A stretch of 64,000 nt of DNA, from positions 7,794 to 71,793 of IMG/VR virus record IMGVR_UViG_3300012667_000289. The stretch is one strand, 5' to 3'. The position numbers were made by a program, and so were the translations under genes. The notes beneath the pieces were generated by a model. It saw only the letters and a program-made list of their open reading frames with translations. It was not told the origin of the DNA and ran no database searches. Origin of the DNA: a virus. Its lineage: Duplodnaviria; Caudoviricetes. How positions within the stretch are numbered: position 1 is the stretch's first letter; every line of letters starts with the position of its first letter. Positions 1-9,959 of this stretch are shown here, piece after piece.

Positions 1-164
1 AATGCTTTCTCAACGCAGGAGAGGGCACTGAAGAGGACGTGGCATTTTGGCGTGCTATTGAGTTGAAGCTGATGCAGCAATAACCCGTAAGATTGAAAGG
101 GCTTTGCAACACAGGCTCTTTCGGTGTTATAATAGAGTTATTGCAACACACACAGGAGTCTAGC

Positions 165-284
165 ATGACCGCACGCAACCGAGAGATCATTGAACTGTTC
201 AACAACGGCGTTTCTCCAGAAGAGATTGCAGCCATAATGGGATTGACTGTTGAAAAAGTTTTGGACATTGTCGAAGCTGCATAA
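165..284 (+). CDS. Small HTH-like protein (39 aa)
   Basis: ATG 165 with CAGGAG RBS at 153-158 and TGTTATAAT promoter; sequence REIIELFNNGVSPEEIAAIMGLTVEKV is HTH-like. Start moved from track position 93. Confidence 0.6.
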   Translation: MTARNREIIELFNNGVSPEEIAAIMGLTVEKVLDIVEAA

Positions 285-327
285 GATTTTGACTGTATAA
301 TACAGTTACTGAAACAAAGGAGCTGAT

Positions 328-522
328 ATGTTTACAGTTGGACAACAGGTGTTTCCAAAGTGGAGTCAACGCTTGCCCGCGTTCACAGTTACACGGGTCG
401 GCGCTGTGACAGTTACAATGGTAGACGAGTGTGGGAATCGCGAGATAATGCACAAGGATGACATTATAGCACGAGACCCCGCTGCACACTACGAGTCGCC
501 TCGCTATGAGGCATTGGGATAA
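328..522 (+). CDS. Hypothetical early protein
   Basis: AAGGAG RBS and TATAAT upstream. Confidence 0.7.
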   Translation: MFTVGQQVFPKWSQRLPAFTVTRVGAVTVTMVDECGNREIMHKDDIIARDPAAHYESPRYEALG

Positions 523-634
523 CCCTTTTAACATTGTGGAGATAAAAAAAAATCTTTGCACAGTGAAAAAAGGCGTTATAATTAAGGCATGCAGAGACAA
601 TAGTGTTGCTGCATAACACACACAGGAGCTAGAG

Positions 635-1072
635 ATGAAAAAATTTACAGTCGCTGGTCACAGCATTTTGGACGGCGTTAAAAAGACCCGTTTTGCAACT
701 ACAATGGATCGCGTCAAAGTGCTTATGCGTAACGGGCACACAGACATCGAGCTGCAGGAGTTGCCCTATGCAATGACTAAAGACGAGATTCGCGCTTTCT
801 TTGGCGAAGAAGCTAAGACAGCAAAACCCAAAGCAGTCAAAGCAGCAGCAGCAGTCGTTGAAGCAGCAGCAGCAGTTGAGACAGAAGAAGATGCAGCGCC
901 CGACACTGTTAAATGGCTGGAGGAAGGCGAACAGCCCGCAGTGGAGCCAGAAGCTATTACTTACGCGACCTTTGAAGAAGCGTTAGCAGCAGTTCCGCTC
1001 CGCAGCGACAAGGGACACTTTATTAAGAAAGAAGTGCGCGAAGCACTTGCACGCGACATGGTAGCAGCTTAA
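635..1072 (+). CDS. Hypothetical early protein (Ala/Glu-rich linker)
   Basis: CAGGAG RBS, TATAAT at 577-582, terminator downstream. Confidence 0.8.
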   Translation: MKKFTVAGHSILDGVKKTRFATTMDRVKVLMRNGHTDIELQELPYAMTKDEIRAFFGEEAKTAKPKAVKAAAAVVEAAAAVETEEDAAPDTVKWLEEGEQPAVEPEAITYATFEEALAAVPLRSDKGHFIKKEVREALARDMVAA

Positions 1073-1083
1073 CACAAAAACAA

Positions 1084-1110
1084 AGCCCTTACAACTGTAA
1101 GGGTCTTTTA
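1084..1110 (+). terminator. Intrinsic terminator
   Basis: gcccttac-aact-gtaagggt stem followed by T-run. Confidence 0.75.
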
Positions 1111-1540
1111 ACCCTACCCTGTGTAGGGTTTCTTTTTGCTGCAAAGTTCACACATCCTGCTATCTTCCGCCGCAATGCTATAACGTGTGGGCCTGCACCT
1201 GCCTACACCTGCATCGTGCGACGAGTATAACAGGGTTCACACGTTAAGATTGAGGAATCTTAGATGTTCCACGTGCGAACTAGTCTAAACTAATACTTTT
1301 GTTTTAAAAAATCCTCGCTAGCTCACACGTTAAGATTGAGGAATCTAAGATGTTCCACGTGCGGCCCTGTATTGTTCACACGTTAAGGAACGGGATCCTA
1401 AGATGTAGAACGTGCGGATCTGCACTGTTCGCACGTGCTAAGAATTGCATTCTATGCAGTCCACGTGCGGCCCTGTTGTGCGCTGTTACACTTTGTTACA
1501 ATTACTTTGCACACACTAGCGCAAATGAGCAAAACGGCGT

Positions 1541-1583
1541 TATAATACATTATGCGCTGCAATAGTGTAGCGCATAACAGGAG
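1541..1583 (+). promoter_or_regulatory. Sigma70-like -10 box, leader hairpin and CAGGAG RBS
   Basis: TATAAT 1541-1546, then ttatgcgctgca-atag-tgtagcgcataa, then caggag; near-identical copy at 2046-2087. Confidence 0.75.
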
Positions 1584-1589
1584 CAACTT

Positions 1590-2000
1590 ATGCAACACGT
1601 AACGCAACAAGACGACAGCTATACACTAGACATTACTGTTAACAAACTGTTTACAGTAGCAGGAGACGGCTTGTGGAGCAACACTGCAAAACAAGTGTTT
1701 GTTACTAACATAACAATGTACATTGGCGCAGTGGAGGAGGACGGCTACTTTGGCGACGGCGACTTGGCAGTGCACACTACAGCAGAAACGTGGAACGAGC
1801 AAGAGCTGGGTTTAATTTACACAGACAAGGCATTTATTGCAGACGTGCGTGCAGAGCTTATTGCAGCAGGCATTGACGCAGAAGTAGCAGCAGACGTTGA
1901 CTACAGCGAGCAAGGAATGCAGGACACAGGGCGTGTTAGCTGCGATGCTTATAAACTTGCAGACTATGTGCGTGCACAGATGCAGACTGTGACAGCATAA
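1590..2000 (+). CDS. Hypothetical acidic early protein, no proline
   Basis: Promoter, RBS and terminator (2006-2040) flank it; coding strand has no TC/CC. Confidence 0.85.
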   Translation: MQHVTQQDDSYTLDITVNKLFTVAGDGLWSNTAKQVFVTNITMYIGAVEEDGYFGDGDLAVHTTAETWNEQELGLIYTDKAFIADVRAELIAAGIDAEVAADVDYSEQGMQDTGRVSCDAYKLADYVRAQMQTVTA

Positions 2001-2093
2001 CATTACAGCGCACAGGGTTATTAACTGTGCGCTGCATTTTGGTGTTATAATACATTATGCGCTGCACAGTGTAGCGCATAACAGGAGCTTAAA

Positions 2094-2423
2094 ATGGAAA
2101 ACATGAAGCGTAGATTTGTTAAACTGTGCTTGTTGCAAGACATAACATACGAAGGCGACACAGAGGCAGAACGTGCTGCGTGGATTGCTAACGTAACAGG
2201 CAGCGTGGGCACAGAGGGCTACGGGCTGCAAGACGACGGCGACGACTACATAACAGCAGAGTTTAGCACAGACGAAGTTGTGTTTGCTAACGTAGAAGTA
2301 TATTGCTACATGGGCAGCGAAAACGAGCAAGAGCGTTTTTACACAAAAGAGTGTGTTGTTGTGCAGGAAAAAGCAACAGGCGACTATTACGCATACGAGA
2401 CAGAAGACTTGTACGAAGTGTAA
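2094..2423 (+). CDS. Hypothetical acidic early protein, no proline
   Basis: Same promoter/hairpin/RBS architecture; terminator 2441-2467. Confidence 0.85.
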   Translation: MENMKRRFVKLCLLQDITYEGDTEAERAAWIANVTGSVGTEGYGLQDDGDDYITAEFSTDEVVFANVEVYCYMGSENEQERFYTKECVVVQEKATGDYYAYETEDLYEV

Positions 2424-2440
2424 TTATAACACATAACACA

Positions 2441-2467
2441 AAAAGCTGCACAGTGTGCAGCTTTTTT
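2441..2467 (+). terminator. Intrinsic terminator (possibly bidirectional)
   Basis: aaaagctgcaca-g-tgtgcagctttttt. Confidence 0.75.
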
Positions 2468-2755
2468 GTGTGCAGCAGGATCGCACGTAACAACGAAGAG
2501 GTTTAGGTGTAAGCACGTGCGAGACCCCGCTACACATTATACCTAACAAACAAGTCAGTCCGCACACCTAAACACAAAAGACCCCGCTGTCGCAGAGGCT
2601 GCGTACCTGCGGTTGCACAGGCTGTGCTCACACTTTAGATATCTAAGACCTCTAAGACCTATAGGTGTGAACACACAGTCTTTACAGGAGTAGACAGTTC
2701 GCACGTGCAACAATCTAAAGCCTTTGCTGCCTACGTGCGGATTTGCAGCGCAAAT

Positions 2756-2780
2756 AAAAAGCGCATCTAGTGCGCTTTTT
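2756..2780 (-). terminator. Intrinsic terminator for 2796-3038 gene
   Basis: aaaaagcgca-tctag-tgcgcttttt, A/T runs on both sides. Confidence 0.7.
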
Positions 2781-2795
2781 GTGTTACAATGCTGT

Positions 2796-3038
2796 TTAAT
2801 GCGCCATTGCGTTATTAATAGCTATTGCTGCAAGCACTTCTGCAGGAGCTTGTGCATACATAAACGCTTGCACTTCTGCTGTTTGTGCAGCGTTAAACTT
2901 TTCAAAGTAGTTGTCTGCAATATAGTCTGCTGTGTCCCCGTCGCCGTGCAGCATTGCTGCTTTGTAAATTGTTACAATGTGCTGCATGTCGTGCGCTGCT
3001 GCTACTTTAAGCATGTTAATTTGCATTTGCAAAAGCAT
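2796..3038 (-). CDS. Hypothetical early protein
   Basis: CAGGAG RBS (complement of 3045-3050), TGTTATAAT at 3086-3094 on minus strand, terminator downstream. Confidence 0.8.
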   Translation of the reverse strand: MLLQMQINMLKVAAAHDMQHIVTIYKAAMLHGDGDTADYIADNYFEKFNAAQTAEVQAFMYAQAPAEVLAAIAINNAMAH

Positions 3039-4568
3039 TTTAAACTCCTGTTTACTGCTGTGCGTTATTGCTGTGCAGTAAGTATATTATAACATCCAAA
3101 ATAGTAAGTTGTGCGTAAGCATTGTAACAAATTGTAACAGCGCAGTTCGCACATACAAACATCTTCCTGCACAACAGTAACACGTGCGAGCTCTTATGTT
3201 AGTGTGCACATACTAACTTGCCCGCACACGCACAAATCTTCCTGCACAGCAGCAGCACGTGCGAGCGTGCATTGCTTTTGTGTTGTGCGTTTTTTGCATG
3301 TGTCTAGTTTAACACCTCTGCAACGCAGTTCGCACGTAGGCAGCACAGGTATTTTGCATCTAACGTGCGGACATAGCACAGTGTAATACTTTAGTGCACA
3401 GTTCGCACGTAGCGGCAAAATAACCAACAGCTCCTAACGTGCGAGACCCCGCTACGGATCACACGTTATGCACAAAACTCTGCTTTAGATGTTTGCAGTG
3501 CACGTGTGGACACAAACTACATTTAAAAAACAGCGTTAGTCACACGTGCGCAAATAAATCCTGTCGCTTAGGAAAACTGCACACGTGCGAGCCGCAGCGC
3601 AATAACTAAGCAGTTAGTGCACAGTTTGCACAGTTCACACGTGCGCAAATAAATCCTGTCGCTTAGGAAAACTGCACACGTGCGAGCTACACACAGCTTT
3701 AAATGTACAAAACGCAAGTTCGCACGTTAGATGTCGTTGATGTAATTTTGTACACGTGCGAACAGCAACAACATTTAACAAAACAGCGCAGTTCGCACAT
3801 TAGATGTCGTTGATGTAATTTTGTGCACGTGTGACAAGCACGTATAACAGCGCACACACAGTTAAGCTATACAAGTGCAGTAGTAGCAGCAGTAATGCGT
3901 GCAGTAGGGTTTTAGTGCGTTACAGTGTAGTTGTAGCAGCAGCGCAAGCGATAAAGTAAGCAGTAGCGTAAGCAGCAGCGTAATTATAACACAGCTCGCA
4001 CGTGCGCAACTAATTCTGCAGCACAAGAAAATACAAAAACGTGTGAGCTGTATGCATATACAGTAATACTAAATGTTTACTGTATAAAAACACAGCTCGC
4101 ATGTGCAAAAATCTTCCTGCACAGCAGCAGCACGTGCGAGCGTGCATTGCTTTTGTGTTGTGCGTTTTTTGCTGCATAAATTTATTATACTGCCGTTCGC
4201 ACGTGTGCACAAGTAGGTTGCAGGTTAAAAACGTGCGGACTTTAACACACTGTATAAAAACACAGTTCGCACGTGCACACTGCTGGTATTTTGCAGCGCA
4301 CGTGCGAACTACAAAAACAAACAAACTATGCAGTTCGCACGTGCAAACGCATTCTAAGCAGCAAAAAACGTGCGAGCTTTAACAGCACACAAGTTCGCAC
4401 GTGCAAACGCATTCTGCAAAGCAGCGCACGTGCGAGCAAGTAAAAACAAAAATAAATTGTAACAGTTGCAAAAATACAACACAAATATATTTAAATATTT
4501 AAAAAATGCGCTATAATACGTGCACTACATAAATTTATGTAGCAACGCAACTAAAGCAAAAGCACAGT

Positions 4569-4874
4569 ATGCAAAACACACAGTTAGTTTATAATTTTTT
4601 GTTGCAAAATAGCAACAAACAGCGCACAGCAGCAAATATTGCAGCGCACACGCAACTTACAACAGTGCAAGTTAGCAGCGCACTACAATGTTTGCAACGC
4701 AAAAATTTAATTGTTGTTGCTAGCAAACAACACAAAAAACAATACACTTATGTTGTAGCAACACAACACGTTGTAGCAACGCAACATGTTGCGCAAATAC
4801 AACAAAAAAATGTTGCAGCAAAGCAACAAAATATTTTACAGCGCATAGCGCAAATGTTTAAGCGTATGTTTTAA
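4569..4874 (+). CDS. Putative winged-HTH protein lacking D/E/G/P/W
   Basis: TATAAT 4512-4517, leader hairpin, terminator 4886-4915; pattern VYNFLLQ..RTAANIAAHTQLTTVQVSSALQCLQRKNLIV resembles wHTH. Confidence 0.75.
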   Translation: MQNTQLVYNFLLQNSNKQRTAANIAAHTQLTTVQVSSALQCLQRKNLIVVASKQHKKQYTYVVATQHVVATQHVAQIQQKNVAAKQQNILQRIAQMFKRMF

Positions 4875-4885
4875 ACAACACAAAG

Positions 4886-4915
4886 TAGCGCACTAAAACA
4901 GTGCGCTATTTTTTT
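4886..4915 (+). terminator. Intrinsic terminator
   Basis: tagcgcact-aaaac-agtgcgcta followed by T-run. Confidence 0.8.
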
Positions 4916-5933
4916 GTGCACATAGCTCGCACGTGCAAACGCATTCTAAGCAGCAGCGCACGTGCGGACCCCGCTGTATAGCTCGCACGTGTTTATACAC
5001 AACGCACGCACTGTGCATGTAGTTACGTGCGAGCTGCACACAAACGCAAACTTAACACACAGTTCACACGTGTTTATGCACAACGCACGCAGCGTGCATG
5101 TAGTTACGTGCGAGCTACGCACAGCTTTAAATTGTACACAACGCAAGTTCGCACGTGCACACTGCTGGTATTTTGCAGCGCACGTGCGGACACAGTAAAT
5201 TGCGCACTAACTGCTTAATAAACAGCACGCAGTTCGCACGTGCAAACGCATTCTAAGCAGCAGCGCACGTGCGAACGCAGCACAAGCAATTAAAAACACA
5301 ACGCACAAAACAAAACAAAAACACATAAAACAAACAGTACACGCAGTTCGCACGTGCAAACGCATTCTAAGCAGCAAAAAACGTGCGGACAAAGTTGCGC
5401 AACAGCAAAATGCTGTTATAATAAACACATAGCACATTAGCAGCAGCTACGCTAACGCAAATTCGCACGTGTTTATACACAACGCACGCAGCGTGCATGT
5501 AGTTACGTGCGAACTGTATACACATACAGTAGTGCGTATTTCGCACGTGCAAACGCTTTCTAAGCAGCAGCAACACGTGCGAGACTGTGCATATATACAG
5601 TAAGCATTTAGTATACGTGTGTTTTTGCTGCATAAATTTATTATACTACCAGTCCGCACGTGCGCAGCGCTGGTATTTTACAAAAAACGTGCGGACGCTC
5701 GCACGTGTTTATGCACAACGCACGCACTGTGCATGTAGTTACGTGCGAGCTGCACATTACTGTATAAAAAACACAGCTCACACGTGTGCAGTGCATAGCT
5801 GCATGTTGCACGTGCGAGCTAATAAAACAAAAAAATAAATTGTAACAGTTGCGCAAAAACAACACAATTGTGCAGTATAATAACTGCACTGCACAAATTT
5901 GTGCAGCAACGCAAAGTAACGCAAAAGTACACA

Positions 5934-6548
5934 ATGCAAAAATTAACAGCAGCGCAAGCGCAAGCAGCAATTTTGTTGCACGCAAACAACAACACAATAA
6001 CAGCAACGCAAGTACAAAACTTGCTTGCAAATGTTAGTGTTACATTTGCACAAATTACATATGTAACGCAAGTGCAGTTAGCAGCAGCACATAAAGCGCA
6101 AAACATTTTAAAAGTAACTACAGCTAATGTTATGCTTTGCAGCAACATTAAAGCGCATACAAGCGTGTACAAGCGCAAAGTACAGCGCAGTGCAGCTAAG
6201 TATGCGCAAAACAGCGCAAGCGCAGTAGCAGCGTTTACAGCGCAGCAAAACTACTTTACGCATACAGCAGTACATAGCATTGTGCACAATAATAAAAACA
6301 TTAACGCAATGTATTTGTATTGTTTTTATAACAATGCAAGCAGCGTGTATATGCACAATAATGCAGTTGTAACAAAACAACATGTTGCAGCATACTGCAC
6401 TAAAAGTGCAGCAGCTACTTTGTTGCAGCAAAACAACACTGTGCATAATGTAACACATAACATTACACATAACGTGCAAGTGCGCACTATAGCATTACAC
6501 AACATAGTTAGTATTAAAGCACGCAAACAGTTGCTAACTGTAGCATAA
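5934..6548 (+). CDS. Hypothetical 204-aa protein lacking D/E/G/P/W
   Basis: TATAAT 5876-5881 and leader hairpin favour ATG 5934 over track start 5868; terminator 6562-6592. Confidence 0.8.
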   Translation: MQKLTAAQAQAAILLHANNNTITATQVQNLLANVSVTFAQITYVTQVQLAAAHKAQNILKVTTANVMLCSNIKAHTSVYKRKVQRSAAKYAQNSASAVAAFTAQQNYFTHTAVHSIVHNNKNINAMYLYCFYNNASSVYMHNNAVVTKQHVAAYCTKSAAATLLQQNNTVHNVTHNITHNVQVRTIALHNIVSIKARKQLLTVA

Positions 6549-6561
6549 AGCACTACACACG

Positions 6562-6592
6562 CAGCGCACTAAAACAGTGCGCTGTTTTTTTT
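6562..6592 (+). terminator. Intrinsic terminator
   Basis: cagcgcact-aaaac-agtgcgctg followed by T-run; same loop as 4886 terminator. Confidence 0.8.
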
Positions 6593-6937
6593 GTGCACAT
6601 AGCTCGCACGTGCAGCAGTGCACAGCAGCATGTATACGTGCGAGCTGTATACACATACAGTAGTGTGCGCAGCACATAGCTCACACGTGCAGCAGCGCAG
6701 AAAATATTTTTGACACGTGGGGGGCATGTATATACATACAGTAATACTATATACTACGCACGCTTGCTTGTTTTTAACACCAGTGTAGTGCAATCACCAG
6801 GGGCCGAGATCTCCAAACCTTCTTATTTTTGCGCGGCAATTTTTTTGGCTACTGTATAGACCGGGGGCTGCTCCCACTGTGAATCTACTGTAAATAAACT
6901 GTGCGCCCCCATGTGGTGCCATTACTGTGGAATTATT

Positions 6938-7111
6938 ATGGAATACTATAGCATCACCGTCTCTAACGACCGAACAGCGGAATACTCACTGTTCTTGCAA
7001 CAAAACTATATCACGGAATACACAGTGGTACCAGCGAGCCGTTTCACTGTGGAATATCGCTTTAAGCGTTATGATCATTTCTCACAGTTCATTTCACGCT
7101 GGGCACTGTAA
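6938..7111 (+). CDS. Small hypothetical protein
   Basis: ORF track (6911 start); ATG 6938 gives a plausible small phage protein. Confidence 0.5.
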   Translation: MEYYSITVSNDRTAEYSLFLQQNYITEYTVVPASRFTVEYRFKRYDHFSQFISRWAL

Positions 7112-7437: not shown

Positions 7438-7827
7438 TTAAATTTCTGGCGCTATGCGCTTCGCGCTGGAGTCAGGCCCTTGACCCGTTCGATTCTTCCA
7501 AAACTCCTTACCATCGGGCTGTAGGGTGGAAGATGCTATCACTGTGTTGCCCAACTCTTGTGCCCAGTCATACATTTTGGTAGCCAGGCCAATTCGACGC
7601 CAACGTTTATCCACCCATGTGTCTTGACTGCTCATGGTTTCTTCGTCGGGGTTTACTTCCAGTGTGGCATAGGCTATTAGCCCATGTTCAGGACTTTGTA
7701 TGTCTATGGTAAGATCAAACTCACCTCTTGACTGTGCGGTCCAGGTTAGTCCCATTGAATCGGTCTGTTTGTGAGTAAAAGGCTCACCTTGTTGTATTTC
7801 GGGTTGTATGATTTCTTGGATTCGCAT
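7438..7827 (-). CDS. GNAT-fold protein, late-expressed
   Basis: WVDKRWRRIGLATKMY resembles GNAT motif A; TATAAATA at 7833-7840 just upstream. Confidence 0.6.
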   Translation of the reverse strand: MRIQEIIQPEIQQGEPFTHKQTDSMGLTWTAQSRGEFDLTIDIQSPEHGLIAYATLEVNPDEETMSSQDTWVDKRWRRIGLATKMYDWAQELGNTVIASSTLQPDGKEFWKNRTGQGPDSSAKRIAPEI

Positions 7828-7832
7828 GTGCA

Positions 7833-7881
7833 TATTTATAGTTGGATTTTGAAATCCATATAGTAGACAAAAATATAAATA
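7833..7881. promoter_or_regulatory. Divergent T4-like late promoters (TATAAATA)
   Basis: Minus-strand TATAAATA 7833-7840 and plus-strand 7874-7881. TAAATA cores also precede many genes, e.g. 24000-24007 and 42574-42581. Confidence 0.75.
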
Positions 7882-7907: not shown

Positions 7908-9959
7908 ATGAACTTATACAAATCACTATTCGAAGCTCCCATTACCGCAATGGACCCCGAAGATGAACCACAGCGACCTAAACCTACCAAAGCTAAACCT
8001 AAAAATGATCCGTTTGACTTTTTAAATGATCTAGGCGACATTGGGGGCGTTAGCAAGAACGTGCCAAGCGGACCCGTTGATTCACAAGGCGAAACTCCCA
8101 ATCAAGATCGAGGTGCAACAGGCGGTCCCGAAATGCCACGTGCCAGTGGAGACACTACTCGATCACGTATGGCAGGCCGCTCAGCCAGCGATCAGATGCG
8201 TGACATGTTGGGTCGCATTGACATGAATCAGAATGATGAAATAGATGATGCAGAAGCCGCTCGTCGTGCAGGTCTAGGTGGAGCAGAACGTCCAGCACTA
8301 GGTGGAGCAGAACGTCCAGCACTAAACAGACCACCACGCAACGAAATTGATCGAGTTCGCCCGGCAGATGTGCCAATGGTGTTGAACAATCAATTGCGTG
8401 CCGCAGGTCAGCAAATGCCAGAATGGCACACAATCAACAACTTGCCCGGATATATGCAGCGTGCTATCCGCGGTATGGGTCGTCAGATGTTTAGCATGAT
8501 GACTCGCACACCGTTAGAGCAGATCATGACCATTGCTAATGTAGATGGTCAGGGTCCAAACACAGCAGCAGAGATGCGTGCAGTGGCCAATTGGTTAATG
8601 CAAAACGGAGAAGACCTTGGTCCAGTCCGGATCGATTTTGGACGAGCAATTCCCGGATATGAGCCAGAGGTTCGTGAATACTCAGCAATGGGCCTTCGTT
8701 TCCACGTAGTGCGTGATCCAATGGGTCAGTACATTTATGCATACCCAGAACAAGATGCCCGCACACCAGGTGCCGGTGGCGGCAACAATAACCCAAGACT
8801 TAATAGAGAAAGCAGAATGATTAATAATATTAAAACTCCCGTTGCCGAAAGCGTGCAAAAATACCTAGCAGAGTCGCTAGCACTGCACAAAGAACGTGCA
8901 TTACTTGAAAGCGAAGTGCTAGAAGAGTTATCTACTCAATTGTTAAACGAAAGTACACTTAGCAAGTTAATTGGTGATCAGCCTGGCGGTCAGCCAATTG
9001 TTCGATGGATGCACGGTAGATACTTACTAAGTAATACCGCAGAGTGGTATGAGCACCAATTTAGTGACCGTGTATTCTGGACAGAGTTTAAAAATAACCC
9101 GGATCAATTTTTGATTGTTGTTGGTGCTAATGGTACTGCTGGTATTAAGCCTAGTTTAGAATCGTTTAAAAAAGGCGAAGAAAGTGCTGCCAGAAGAAAC
9201 AAAGAATACAATCCATCGAGAGATAATACAATGAAATATCAAATCATTGCGTTCCTTCGAGATCAACAAATTGATCCGGATTTGCTGCGTGCACCCGATG
9301 ACGTAGAGCGTGATGTAGATCCTACAATTATGAAAACTCGCGGAGGCATGGTCAACAAAAGAGACACTAAGGATTTCAATATTTTTGACGGGCTAAGAGA
9401 CCAAATTGGCCAACTGCACACTGTTGTTTTTAGCAAGTCAAGAGCCACTGGAATTAACAAAAGAGACGCTAAGAATTTTACAAAAGGTTATCAAGCAAAG
9501 TCCGGCGTTGTCGGAACACCTGGTGCTATCGAACGTGATAAGATTGCAACTCGCCGCCCTAACGTAGCTCCTGGAGATCAAGGCGATCACCTCGCTAAGT
9601 TTAAAAACAAGATACAGCCAATTATGAAGAAGGTATTGCAGCGTGTTGGCAATATGGCATTGATGGATGTTAGAGAAGAAGCCAGGGATGCTGAACAAGC
9701 AGGCGCTTTCAGTCGTGCGAGACAATGGTTAGATGTAGCTGAAAAAATTAATAAAATCTTAATAGCTATTAACAAGCAAGGTGATATTGATATGGCTAGA
9801 TATCCGTTGAGTAACTTAATCGATAAATCAATTCAAGATTCTGCCGGAGCCCAAGACCTTGGATTGTATCTTCAGATGTTGAACAGTACTCCAGGTACTG
9901 AAAAGTTAAAACCATTCATGAATGCGTTAAGGGCTAACTTGATTAAAGCCGGACAATAA
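7908..9959 (+). CDS. Large hypothetical late protein (possible virion/internal protein)
   Basis: Long ORF behind late promoter; start moved to ATG 7908. Confidence 0.75.
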   Translation: MNLYKSLFEAPITAMDPEDEPQRPKPTKAKPKNDPFDFLNDLGDIGGVSKNVPSGPVDSQGETPNQDRGATGGPEMPRASGDTTRSRMAGRSASDQMRDMLGRIDMNQNDEIDDAEAARRAGLGGAERPALGGAERPALNRPPRNEIDRVRPADVPMVLNNQLRAAGQQMPEWHTINNLPGYMQRAIRGMGRQMFSMMTRTPLEQIMTIANVDGQGPNTAAEMRAVANWLMQNGEDLGPVRIDFGRAIPGYEPEVREYSAMGLRFHVVRDPMGQYIYAYPEQDARTPGAGGGNNNPRLNRESRMINNIKTPVAESVQKYLAESLALHKERALLESEVLEELSTQLLNESTLSKLIGDQPGGQPIVRWMHGRYLLSNTAEWYEHQFSDRVFWTEFKNNPDQFLIVVGANGTAGIKPSLESFKKGEESAARRNKEYNPSRDNTMKYQIIAFLRDQQIDPDLLRAPDDVERDVDPTIMKTRGGMVNKRDTKDFNIFDGLRDQIGQLHTVVFSKSRATGINKRDAKNFTKGYQAKSGVVGTPGAIERDKIATRRPNVAPGDQGDHLAKFKNKIQPIMKKVLQRVGNMALMDVREEARDAEQAGAFSRARQWLDVAEKINKILIAINKQGDIDMARYPLSNLIDKSIQDSAGAQDLGLYLQMLNSTPGTEKLKPFMNALRANLIKAGQ

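Follow-up and report, generated by a model that had tools for sequence, protein, structure and literature searches.

Gene content and composition of the YC-free stretch

This analysis concerns three small early genes, gA, gB and gC, in a 64,000-nucleotide (nt) stretch of viral DNA (the window; positions 7,794 to 71,793 of IMG/VR record IMGVR_UViG_3300012667_000289), and the absence or near-absence from their coding strands of the dinucleotides TC and CC (hereafter YC; GA and GG are written GR). The source contig, a 71.8-kb record, covers about 20% of the genome of a giant myovirus; its genes include those for a tail sheath and for a terminase that shares 53% identity with the terminase of Pseudomonas phage PA5oct, by this measure the nearest cultured relative of the virus. 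Positions 1-7000 of the window form an early region of small genes, each with a sigma-70-type promoter, a 5' stem-loop, a GGAG site and an intrinsic terminator; a near-identity DNA search of cultured phages gave no match to this region. From about 1473 to 6720, GA, GG, TC and CC are scarce or missing, and gA (1590-2000, plus strand), gB (2094-2423, plus strand) and gC (2796-3038, minus strand) make up the left part of this island of about 5 kb.

The last YC on the plus strand before the run lies at 1472 and the next at 2481, leaving 1008 nt (1473-2480) without TC or CC, in agreement with a preliminary description of this DNA, which had placed the run at 1474-2480. This stretch contains two complete transcription units, flanked on both sides by paired CACGTG repeat units, and retains 106 GA/GG on the sense strand, untranslated parts included. 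The -10 hexamer of gA (TATAAT, 1541-1546) is followed by a 5' stem-loop and a GGAG ribosome-binding site, and the gene encodes an acidic protein of 136 amino acids (aa), with 23 Asp plus Glu residues, no Pro, no YC and 50 GR. Its putative terminator (2007-2040), a hairpin with a T-run that was read by eye and is absent from the terminator-scan list, overlaps the promoter region of gB, the -10 hexamer of which (TATAAT) lies at 2046-2051. The gB product is a 109-aa acidic protein (25 Asp plus Glu, no Pro; no YC, 45 GR). The terminator-like hairpin 3' of gB (2440-2466) is assigned by the scan to the minus strand, with a T-run also present on the plus strand, and the YC at 2481 lies just past it.

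The gC unit is contained in a minus-strand YC-free zone (2741-3187, where the plus strand lacks GA/GG) that is flanked by repeat units and broken only at 2845-2847, a Pro codon. It has its own -10 element (3091-3086), a GGAG site and a terminator hairpin at about 2757-2780, and encodes an 80-aa protein with 13 GR and two YC, both at GCT/CCT, the site of its only Pro codon. The absence of Pro from the first two proteins and the mirrored pattern in gC, with a single CCT Pro codon, had been noted from the sequence beforehand and were confirmed.

No ordinary gene of the contig shares this absence: coding strands elsewhere carry 34-158 YC per kb, and the largest gaps between positions 7000 and 64000 of the window are 79 nt for YC and 137 nt for GR. 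In 250-nt bins at 1501-2500, there are 55-75 G and 43-52 C. Much of the GR remaining in the non-coding parts of the three units belongs to GGAG sites and to a GGYG motif just 5' of the -10 element.

Codon-aware analysis of YC and GR

With the proteins held fixed, synonymous resampling predicted 9-27 YC per gene (P≤0.0012 under every codon-usage null). The codon-aware shuffling proposed in the preliminary description gave a similar picture: with synonymous codons shuffled within each gene, 8.2 YC were expected across codon junctions, out of frame, and one was observed, the corresponding ratio for late genes being 0.95. The untranslated regions and terminators of the three units also lack YC. 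Because codon junctions are affected too, the avoidance operates at the nucleotide rather than the codon level, and bias at the level of codons or tRNAs (escape from an anticodon nuclease, codon optimization) was rejected, junctions and untranslated parts having been purged as well. Among the variants listed in contigs of four DNA runs, 11 fall in gA or gB and none creates a new YC, a weak signal given a neutral expectation of 24% of changes (P of about 0.05-0.3).

Depletion of GR is of a different order. Given the proteins and the YC ban, gA and gB together need at least 77 GR; they have 95, and 100, 115 or 130 would be expected with the codon usage of late genes, the codon usage of neighbouring early genes or uniform usage, respectively. 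Total observed/expected GR ratios (0.80 for gA and 0.74 for gB) are at the level of ordinary genes, but junction GR reaches only 0.59 of expectation, versus 0.83 in late genes and 0.90-0.96 in other early genes. Some pressure on GR therefore exists in gA, gB and gC, but it is weak for freely removable sites. The complete removal of YC together with the weak removal of GR is not the pattern predicted by a strand-symmetric pressure limited only by coding cost. The earlier suggestion that GA and GG had been kept because they were costly to remove is not borne out by these totals, nor by the 54% of synonymously removable GR that gA retains, a value typical of its family.

The genes to the left of position 1100, previously described as unconstrained, are indeed so: their codon-aware YC observed/expected ratios (0.67-0.93) match those of late genes (0.62-0.83), with one 54-aa gene at 0.38, and the left edge of the depletion is a step without a slope. 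This 54-aa acidic early gene, to the left of the island (-81 to 83 in window numbering; 7712-7876 in the contig), has three YC and no Pro, and could represent a unit beyond the island that has been purged in part.

YC avoidance in the gB family

A protein search retrieved 15 gB homologues, none of which contains Pro, and a metagenome scan retrieved 26 gB loci with 47-98% identity; no match was found in cultured phages with tblastn. Sense-strand YC is absent from all 26 loci, which contain 24-53 GR. The 22 distinct sequences of this set (6741 nt; median pairwise nucleotide identity of 0.65) contain no TC, against 254 expected, and no CC, against 138 expected (about 392 together), the other 14 dinucleotides occurring at 0.70-1.45 of expectation; the absence extends to the stop codon and beyond. 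Most of the loci are flanked on either side by ordinary DNA, the fetched flanks containing no doubly depleted segment. As the gB relatives are YC-free mostly within ordinary DNA, the sense-strand ban is an old property of the gene under purifying selection rather than the edge of an island, and the sequence comparison indicates that in gB it is absolute and intrinsic. The three genes had been presented initially as the graded onset of an island depleted on both strands, a view that the 26 gB loci contradict.

Variation in the gA family

Relatives of gA were found at 32 viral loci (32-48% identity); among cultured phages, only two Xanthomonas phages matched in tblastn (32-33% identity). In contrast to the uniform absence seen in gB, YC observed/expected ratios in this family vary continuously from 1.08 down to 0.17, reaching 0 in the window copy. 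YC depletion and retention of synonymously removable GR were uncorrelated across the 30 relatives taken into this comparison (Spearman rho -0.03). At invariant residues, the relatives use TCN in 23-42% of cases, ATC in 14 of 26 and TTC in about 45%, where the window copy has AGC, ATT and TTT. The YC left in partly purged relatives are concentrated in the middle of the open reading frame (ORF), with 5, 9, 18, 4 and 7 in successive fifths and no 3' bias; in L065 and L068, the three YC are mid-ORF, with an Asp-Pro at the edge of the YC-free run, where gA of the window has Lys. The codon replacements at invariant residues and the mid-ORF position of the leftover YC indicate that selection rewrote gA, removing cheap YC sites first. 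The earlier proposal that cheap sites were lost first thus stands for YC in the gA family, but not for the idea that GA and GG were kept merely as costly sites. Its preference for selection over strand-blind mutation is likewise supported by these replacements, and the restriction of the ban to the coding strand, in either gene direction, is also upheld.

In the 13 loci where gB is present as well, gA carries 0-9 YC per kb; in 32 loci without gB, it carries 11-80 per kb. No gB was found in five large relatives (G006-G010), in which gA is ordinary.

These data bear on mutation or expression bias, in which YC would be lost through transcription-coupled C-to-T deamination on the non-template strand or through codon optimization. 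APOBEC-type deaminases favour TC and CC on single-stranded DNA, the units have strong promoters, and C-ending two-fold codons are favoured, as in highly expressed genes. Nevertheless, Ser is kept as AGC, with no decay to Leu or Phe; TTC, ATC and ACC have been given up; and the absence of YC from junctions and untranslated parts is beyond the reach of codon optimization. Purifying selection is needed to keep 6.7 kb of diverged sequence at exactly zero, and downstream cistrons of the same transcripts have normal YC contents. We consider such a bias very improbable as the cause.

Boundaries and orientation of the YC-free units

We aligned 14 promoters heading YC-free units on their -10 hexamers and counted YC in 20-nt bins. 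Summed over the 14 promoters, the bins from -120 to -41 contained 14, 23, 18 and 20 YC, which is normal. None was found over the conserved -35 region and seven in the spacer between the -35 and -10 elements (in five promoters, positioned 12-17 nt 5' of the last base of the hexamer). Starting with the -10 hexamer, at least 440 nt are devoid of YC but for one instance, at +99 in L066. A scan for the promoter consensus returned matches no more common than expected by chance.

At the other end, the first YC lies just 3' of the gB terminator in both the window and L045, a near-identical relative (98% identity) in which YC is also present between a terminator and the next promoter. In loci with further cistrons 3' of gB, YC resumes 51-662 nt downstream, and an overlapping membrane-protein gene is ordinary in its YC content. 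In L066, the early unit at 9166-9380 is rich in YC, and the next unit, with the same type of promoter, has one YC up to the gB stop codon. The onset at the promoter, the intergenic YC of L045 and the YC-rich neighbour in L066 together identify the transcription unit as the unit of constraint, with only some units affected. The ban follows gene orientation: three minus-strand genes, gC and two in L053 (two YC and 46 GR; no YC and 12 GR), show it on their own strand.

Some structures were observed near these promoters in relatives. The -35 hexamer TTGACA lies in the loop of a conserved hairpin (AGCACAC...GTGTGCT), the 3' arm of which reaches the -10 element (L046, 2170-2215; L058, 3375-3418; L032, 7040-7075 and 7720-7755); this hairpin looks like a combined terminator and promoter element. 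DnaA-box-like words (TTATCCACA, TTATTCACA and TGTGGATAA) cluster directly 5' of the first YC-poor early unit of L032 (6470-6600). A tRNA-like 3' end (GGTTCGAGTCC...CCA) is located directly 5' of a 1.3-kb YC-free block in L067 (2590-2633).

Relationship between YC loss and GR loss

The gene at 5934-6548 (204 aa) is free of all four dinucleotides in the window and in L040, and its protein lacks five amino acids in the window. Its version in L053 (3214-3780) is already purged of YC (two remain) but has 40 GR, a normal content, and still encodes Asp, Glu, Gly and Trp; the versions in L042 (10001-10609) and L041 (826-1437) are intermediate. Read as an evolutionary series, L053, L042/L041 and the window would represent a passage from a one-strand to a two-strand ban. 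L040 itself is a mosaic, with ordinary YC-rich genes between purged ones. This mosaic and the series for gene 5934-6548 indicate that YC loss is the older and wider layer and that GA/GG loss is a later addition in one sub-lineage, in which the units at 4569-4874 and 5934-6548 lost GA and GG as well. As the YC-only units gA, gB and gC adjoin units that also lack GA and GG, the apparent gradient is a matter of gene order. The recognition of two separable layers changes the reading of the island free of the four dinucleotides.

The positional gradient proposed at the outset assumes a single strand-symmetric reader of GR/YC on duplex DNA, acting, for example, on the first-entering end of the genome, with cheap sites lost and costly ones kept. 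It draws on the rightward fall in sense-strand GR (from 122-136 per kb in gA and gB to 53 in gC and then 0), on the concentration of leftover non-coding GR in GGAG sites and GGYG, on the low junction GR relative to the controls, and on the exact complementarity of GA/GG to TC/CC, PA5oct being inferred to have modified G at GA/GG. It is, however, already contradicted for gB, which is YC-free in 26 relatives, mostly without an island. The step at the left edge, the mosaic of L040 and the lack of correlation between YC loss and loss of removable GR do not fit a gradient either, nor do the ordinary GR totals of gA and gB or the onset at the -10 element of each unit rather than at a genomic position. 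In addition, as a double-strand cut anywhere would be lethal, clearing single genes would be of no help. We consider this explanation improbable. Likewise, a constraint tied to distance from a physical end, like that of the leading end of T5, was not found in this 20%-complete fragment and its relatives: the ban tracks transcription units and gene families in many genomic contexts.

Possible readers of YC

Exactly two dinucleotides, TC and CC, are banned, in the sense strand and with the -10 element or transcription start as the point of onset. The ban is unrelated to the loss of GA and GG, varies with lineage in gA and leaves neighbouring early transcripts with the same kind of promoter unaffected. 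The reader required is specific for pyrimidine-C, acts from the start of the transcript, behaves as if a single site matters and affects only some units and lineages. We favour, with a probability of about 0.7, a YC ban specific to transcription units that is read on the transcript or the template strand, independently of the loss of GA and GG; pyrimidine-C is probably recognized during infection, either in the RNA or in the strand that templates it. The three genes would belong to a class of immediate-early transcription units, the RNA of which must be without 5'-YC-3' (or, equivalently, the template strand of which must be without 5'-GR-3') between the promoter -10 element and the point where the unit ends. 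A factor present during infection would recognize pyrimidine-C in the RNA, nascent or mature, or the complementary dinucleotide on the template while transcription proceeds, and a message would be disabled by a single such event. The first messages, probably encoding counter-defence proteins, would have been written to be immune.

An absolute ban on two dinucleotides that has long been held, sets in at the promoter and is limited to a few genes expressed first would be the sequence footprint of a hitherto undescribed molecular reader. Such a footprint would tell us what the reader recognizes (pyrimidine-C), what it acts on (the transcript or the strand transcribed), how it behaves kinetically (one hit matters) and which genes must escape it, turning a vague notion of motif avoidance into a testable search.

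Several observations weigh against this interpretation. No reader was identified, and no RNA run is present among the public runs listed as holding this sequence, which include DNA runs from seven studies. The 75 nt 5' of the gA promoter likewise contain no YC. That GA/GG is exactly complementary to YC hints at a reader of duplex DNA; a purely RNA-level model leaves this as a coincidence. For a reader of single-stranded RNA in particular, hairpin stems within the YC-free units pose a difficulty, as they too lack YC.

Among the known proteins that could serve as the reader, Rho recognizes 5'-YC dimers of nascent RNA through its primary binding site and is counteracted in termination by G-rich RNA (PMC6144790); no other factor with both properties is known to us. 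With escape from Rho alone, transcripts without YC dimers would give this site no hold and would be transcribed in full before phage anti-termination exists. YC is the exact ligand, and the ban shares with Rho utilization (rut) sites the reading of nascent, sense-strand RNA and a 5' polarity, beginning at the transcript start and relaxing in downstream cistrons. The gA and gB units have no YC and a G content not below that of C, as a rut-free transcript requires, and gA, gB and gC keep the potentially protective GA and GG. Rho is a known barrier to phage gene expression (PMC3526286); natural phage genes that are rut-free by design were not found in the literature that could be searched. Nevertheless, Rho binds several spaced YC cooperatively, which predicts that the last few YC would be almost neutral and that a few YC, or YC at 3' ends, would be tolerated, and not an absolute ban of the gA/gB type. 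Almost every unit has exactly zero, the last 80 nt before stop codons and terminators are also YC-free, neither kind of tolerance is observed in gB, and the YC remaining in gA relatives has no 3' bias. Units that are short and well translated, with strong ribosome sites, should hardly require protection, and the additional GA/GG loss in neighbouring units would be left over. It is unlikely that Rho is the reader, or that escape from Rho alone accounts for the ban.

A modification of guanine at GA/GG in phage DNA, disturbing transcription from the template strand, would also generate a ban of this kind. DpdA-type 7-deazaguanine modification occurs at GA and GGC in CAjan (PMC7544227) and at GA in iggy (PMC10484667), and PA5oct has been inferred to have modified G at GA and/or GG (PMC12191111). 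Units read from incoming DNA would keep their template free of GR, and the sub-lineage would clear both strands. The motif set inferred for PA5oct is an exact match, being the complement of TC/CC; a single chemistry would cover the one-strand and two-strand classes and would predict single-hit, polar behaviour and lineage dependence; and bulky major-groove groups on 7-deazapurines can block bacterial RNA polymerase (PMC4838386). However, small 7-deazaguanine groups are tolerated by this polymerase, and the inhibition seemed to occur at initiation rather than elongation (PMC4838386). A DpdA-type modification acts on both strands of the duplex and should leave the motif absent from both, whereas gA, gB and gC clear the template strand only, from the promoter, and the sense strand of 1473-2480 keeps its 106 GA/GG. 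The same promoters also serve other early genes in which template GR are numerous, and positions 1-50000 of PA5oct, its early region included, contain no such island and no long YC- or GR-free run. No TGT/DpdA, QueC or PTPS gene was found in the contig and four related island-bearing fragments, nor any deazaguanine pathway gene in about 337 kb of related fragments that are 11-36% complete (TGT was sought in the contig and 10 related records, QueC in the contig, and PTPS in the contig and four related records; the island-bearing records are 8-36% complete). We regard guanine modification as a doubtful candidate.

The single candidate to which we give the most weight, though well short of an even chance, is an enzyme that cuts or modifies RNA specifically at YC, proposed by analogy with CmdT. 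This component of CmdTAC ADP-ribosylates the A of GA in single-stranded mRNA, blocking translation as a phage defence (PMC11618068). The likeness lies in an immune enzyme reading a dinucleotide in mRNA, a single hit plausibly disabling the message; the difference lies in the motif, as the three genes keep GA (30 in gA, 29 in gB and 8 in gC). Escape from CmdT-like GA-specific ADP-ribosylation was rejected for these messages, since they contain GA; such an activity could concern the neighbouring GA/GG-free units, but not the YC ban. We know of no YC-specific counterpart of CmdT. Other causes take up the remaining probability.

Three further candidates were rejected. Avoidance of palindromic restriction sites would make the ban excessive and does not fit its onset at the promoter; local clearing of a CRISPR protospacer-adjacent motif cannot protect a genome; and DarT modifies T, leaving CC uncovered.

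Related forms of target avoidance are known. Messages without ACA survive the endoribonuclease MazF, and the logic is shared, in that a message without any copy of a short target, untranslated parts included, remains usable while others are destroyed; that mostly engineered system has a trinucleotide target and a known toxin, whereas the YC ban concerns a dinucleotide class for which we know of no enzyme. Vertebrate RNA viruses suppress CpG, which is bound by the antiviral protein ZAP, and thus also reduce a transcript dinucleotide read on RNA by a host factor, but this animal-virus suppression is partial and genome-wide, whereas the YC ban is absolute and limited to a few early phage transcription units. 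Phage T7 carries its EcoP15I sites in one orientation and the first-step-transfer DNA of T5 is free of restriction sites. These cases resemble ours in the strand-asymmetric or region-limited avoidance of targets in the earliest-acting phage DNA; they differ in involving duplex-read sites of 5-6 bp and genome position, rather than a dinucleotide class with the transcript as the unit.

The three proteins have no family in Pfam or PHROGs. AlphaFold models of gA and gB were confident (pLDDT, the predicted local distance difference test score, of 91 and 89, respectively), but Foldseek gave no match to them in the PDB at E≤0.001, and the best VIA-align Z scores (4.4 for gA and 3.1 for gB) allowed no fold assignment; no resemblance to Rof or Psu appeared. 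The small size and strong acidity of gA and gB, and the small size of gC, would fit early counter-defence proteins. By the same analogy with CmdT, it is conceivable that the bacterial hosts of these freshwater giant phages, or the phages themselves, own an as yet undescribed enzyme that cuts or marks RNA at pyrimidine-C, that gB and its co-purged neighbours are antidotes encoded on untouchable messages, and that a second reader, of GA/GG, explains the units without all four dinucleotides; we regard this as possible, but less likely than not.

Asp codon usage

Asp is encoded by GAC in 14 codons of gA, nine of gB and five of gC (28 in total), and by GAT in one, as counted originally. GAC and GAT are equally permitted, so the YC ban does not produce this bias. 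In the gB family, GAC outnumbers GAT by 172 to 32, a stronger preference than that for the corresponding codons of Asn (49:37) and Tyr (107:63), and in the gA family the bias is associated with YC loss (rho -0.49, P=0.009). A comparison with other early genes, as suggested in the preliminary description, showed that unconstrained neighbours share the bias (30:11, 73% GAC), whereas late genes prefer GAT (231:425). It had been suggested there that the preference may reflect either a role of the third base or expression; the bias is real and linked to YC loss, and is also found in unconstrained neighbours.

Other sequence elements

The last paired repeat unit to the left of the gA unit (1429-1470; YCRCACGT...ACGTGYGR) holds the final YC of the left flank. 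The plus- and minus-strand units are separated by 2481-2740, which contains two further paired repeat units (2481-2522 and 2699-2740) with ordinary DNA, containing YC and GR, between them. A DNA pattern scan for the paired CACGTG repeat gave six single matches in viral contigs. In L045, a short GC-rich palindrome-like element (GGGGTTAGGGCCCC or GGGGTTAGGACCCC) lies between terminators and promoters (1180-1201 and 1670-1700); at these places the window has paired CACGTG repeats or nothing.

TGTAACA/TGTTACA repeats occur just 5' of the early promoters of purged units, at 1474-1500, 3121-3140, 4451-4466 and 5841-5856 in the window and at 1168-1200, 2489-2515, 2861-2930, 4630-4700 and 4996-5020 in L040; they may be regulator-binding sites. 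Positions 3840-3990 of the window consist of 150 nt of GCAGTAG/GCAGCAG-like words, with no YC, few GR and no obvious ORF or repeat pair. Finally, a 39-aa early protein encoded at 165-284 shows sub-threshold matches to sigma-70 region 4 and helix-turn-helix families (best E value of 1.5e-4, under the Pfam cut-off).

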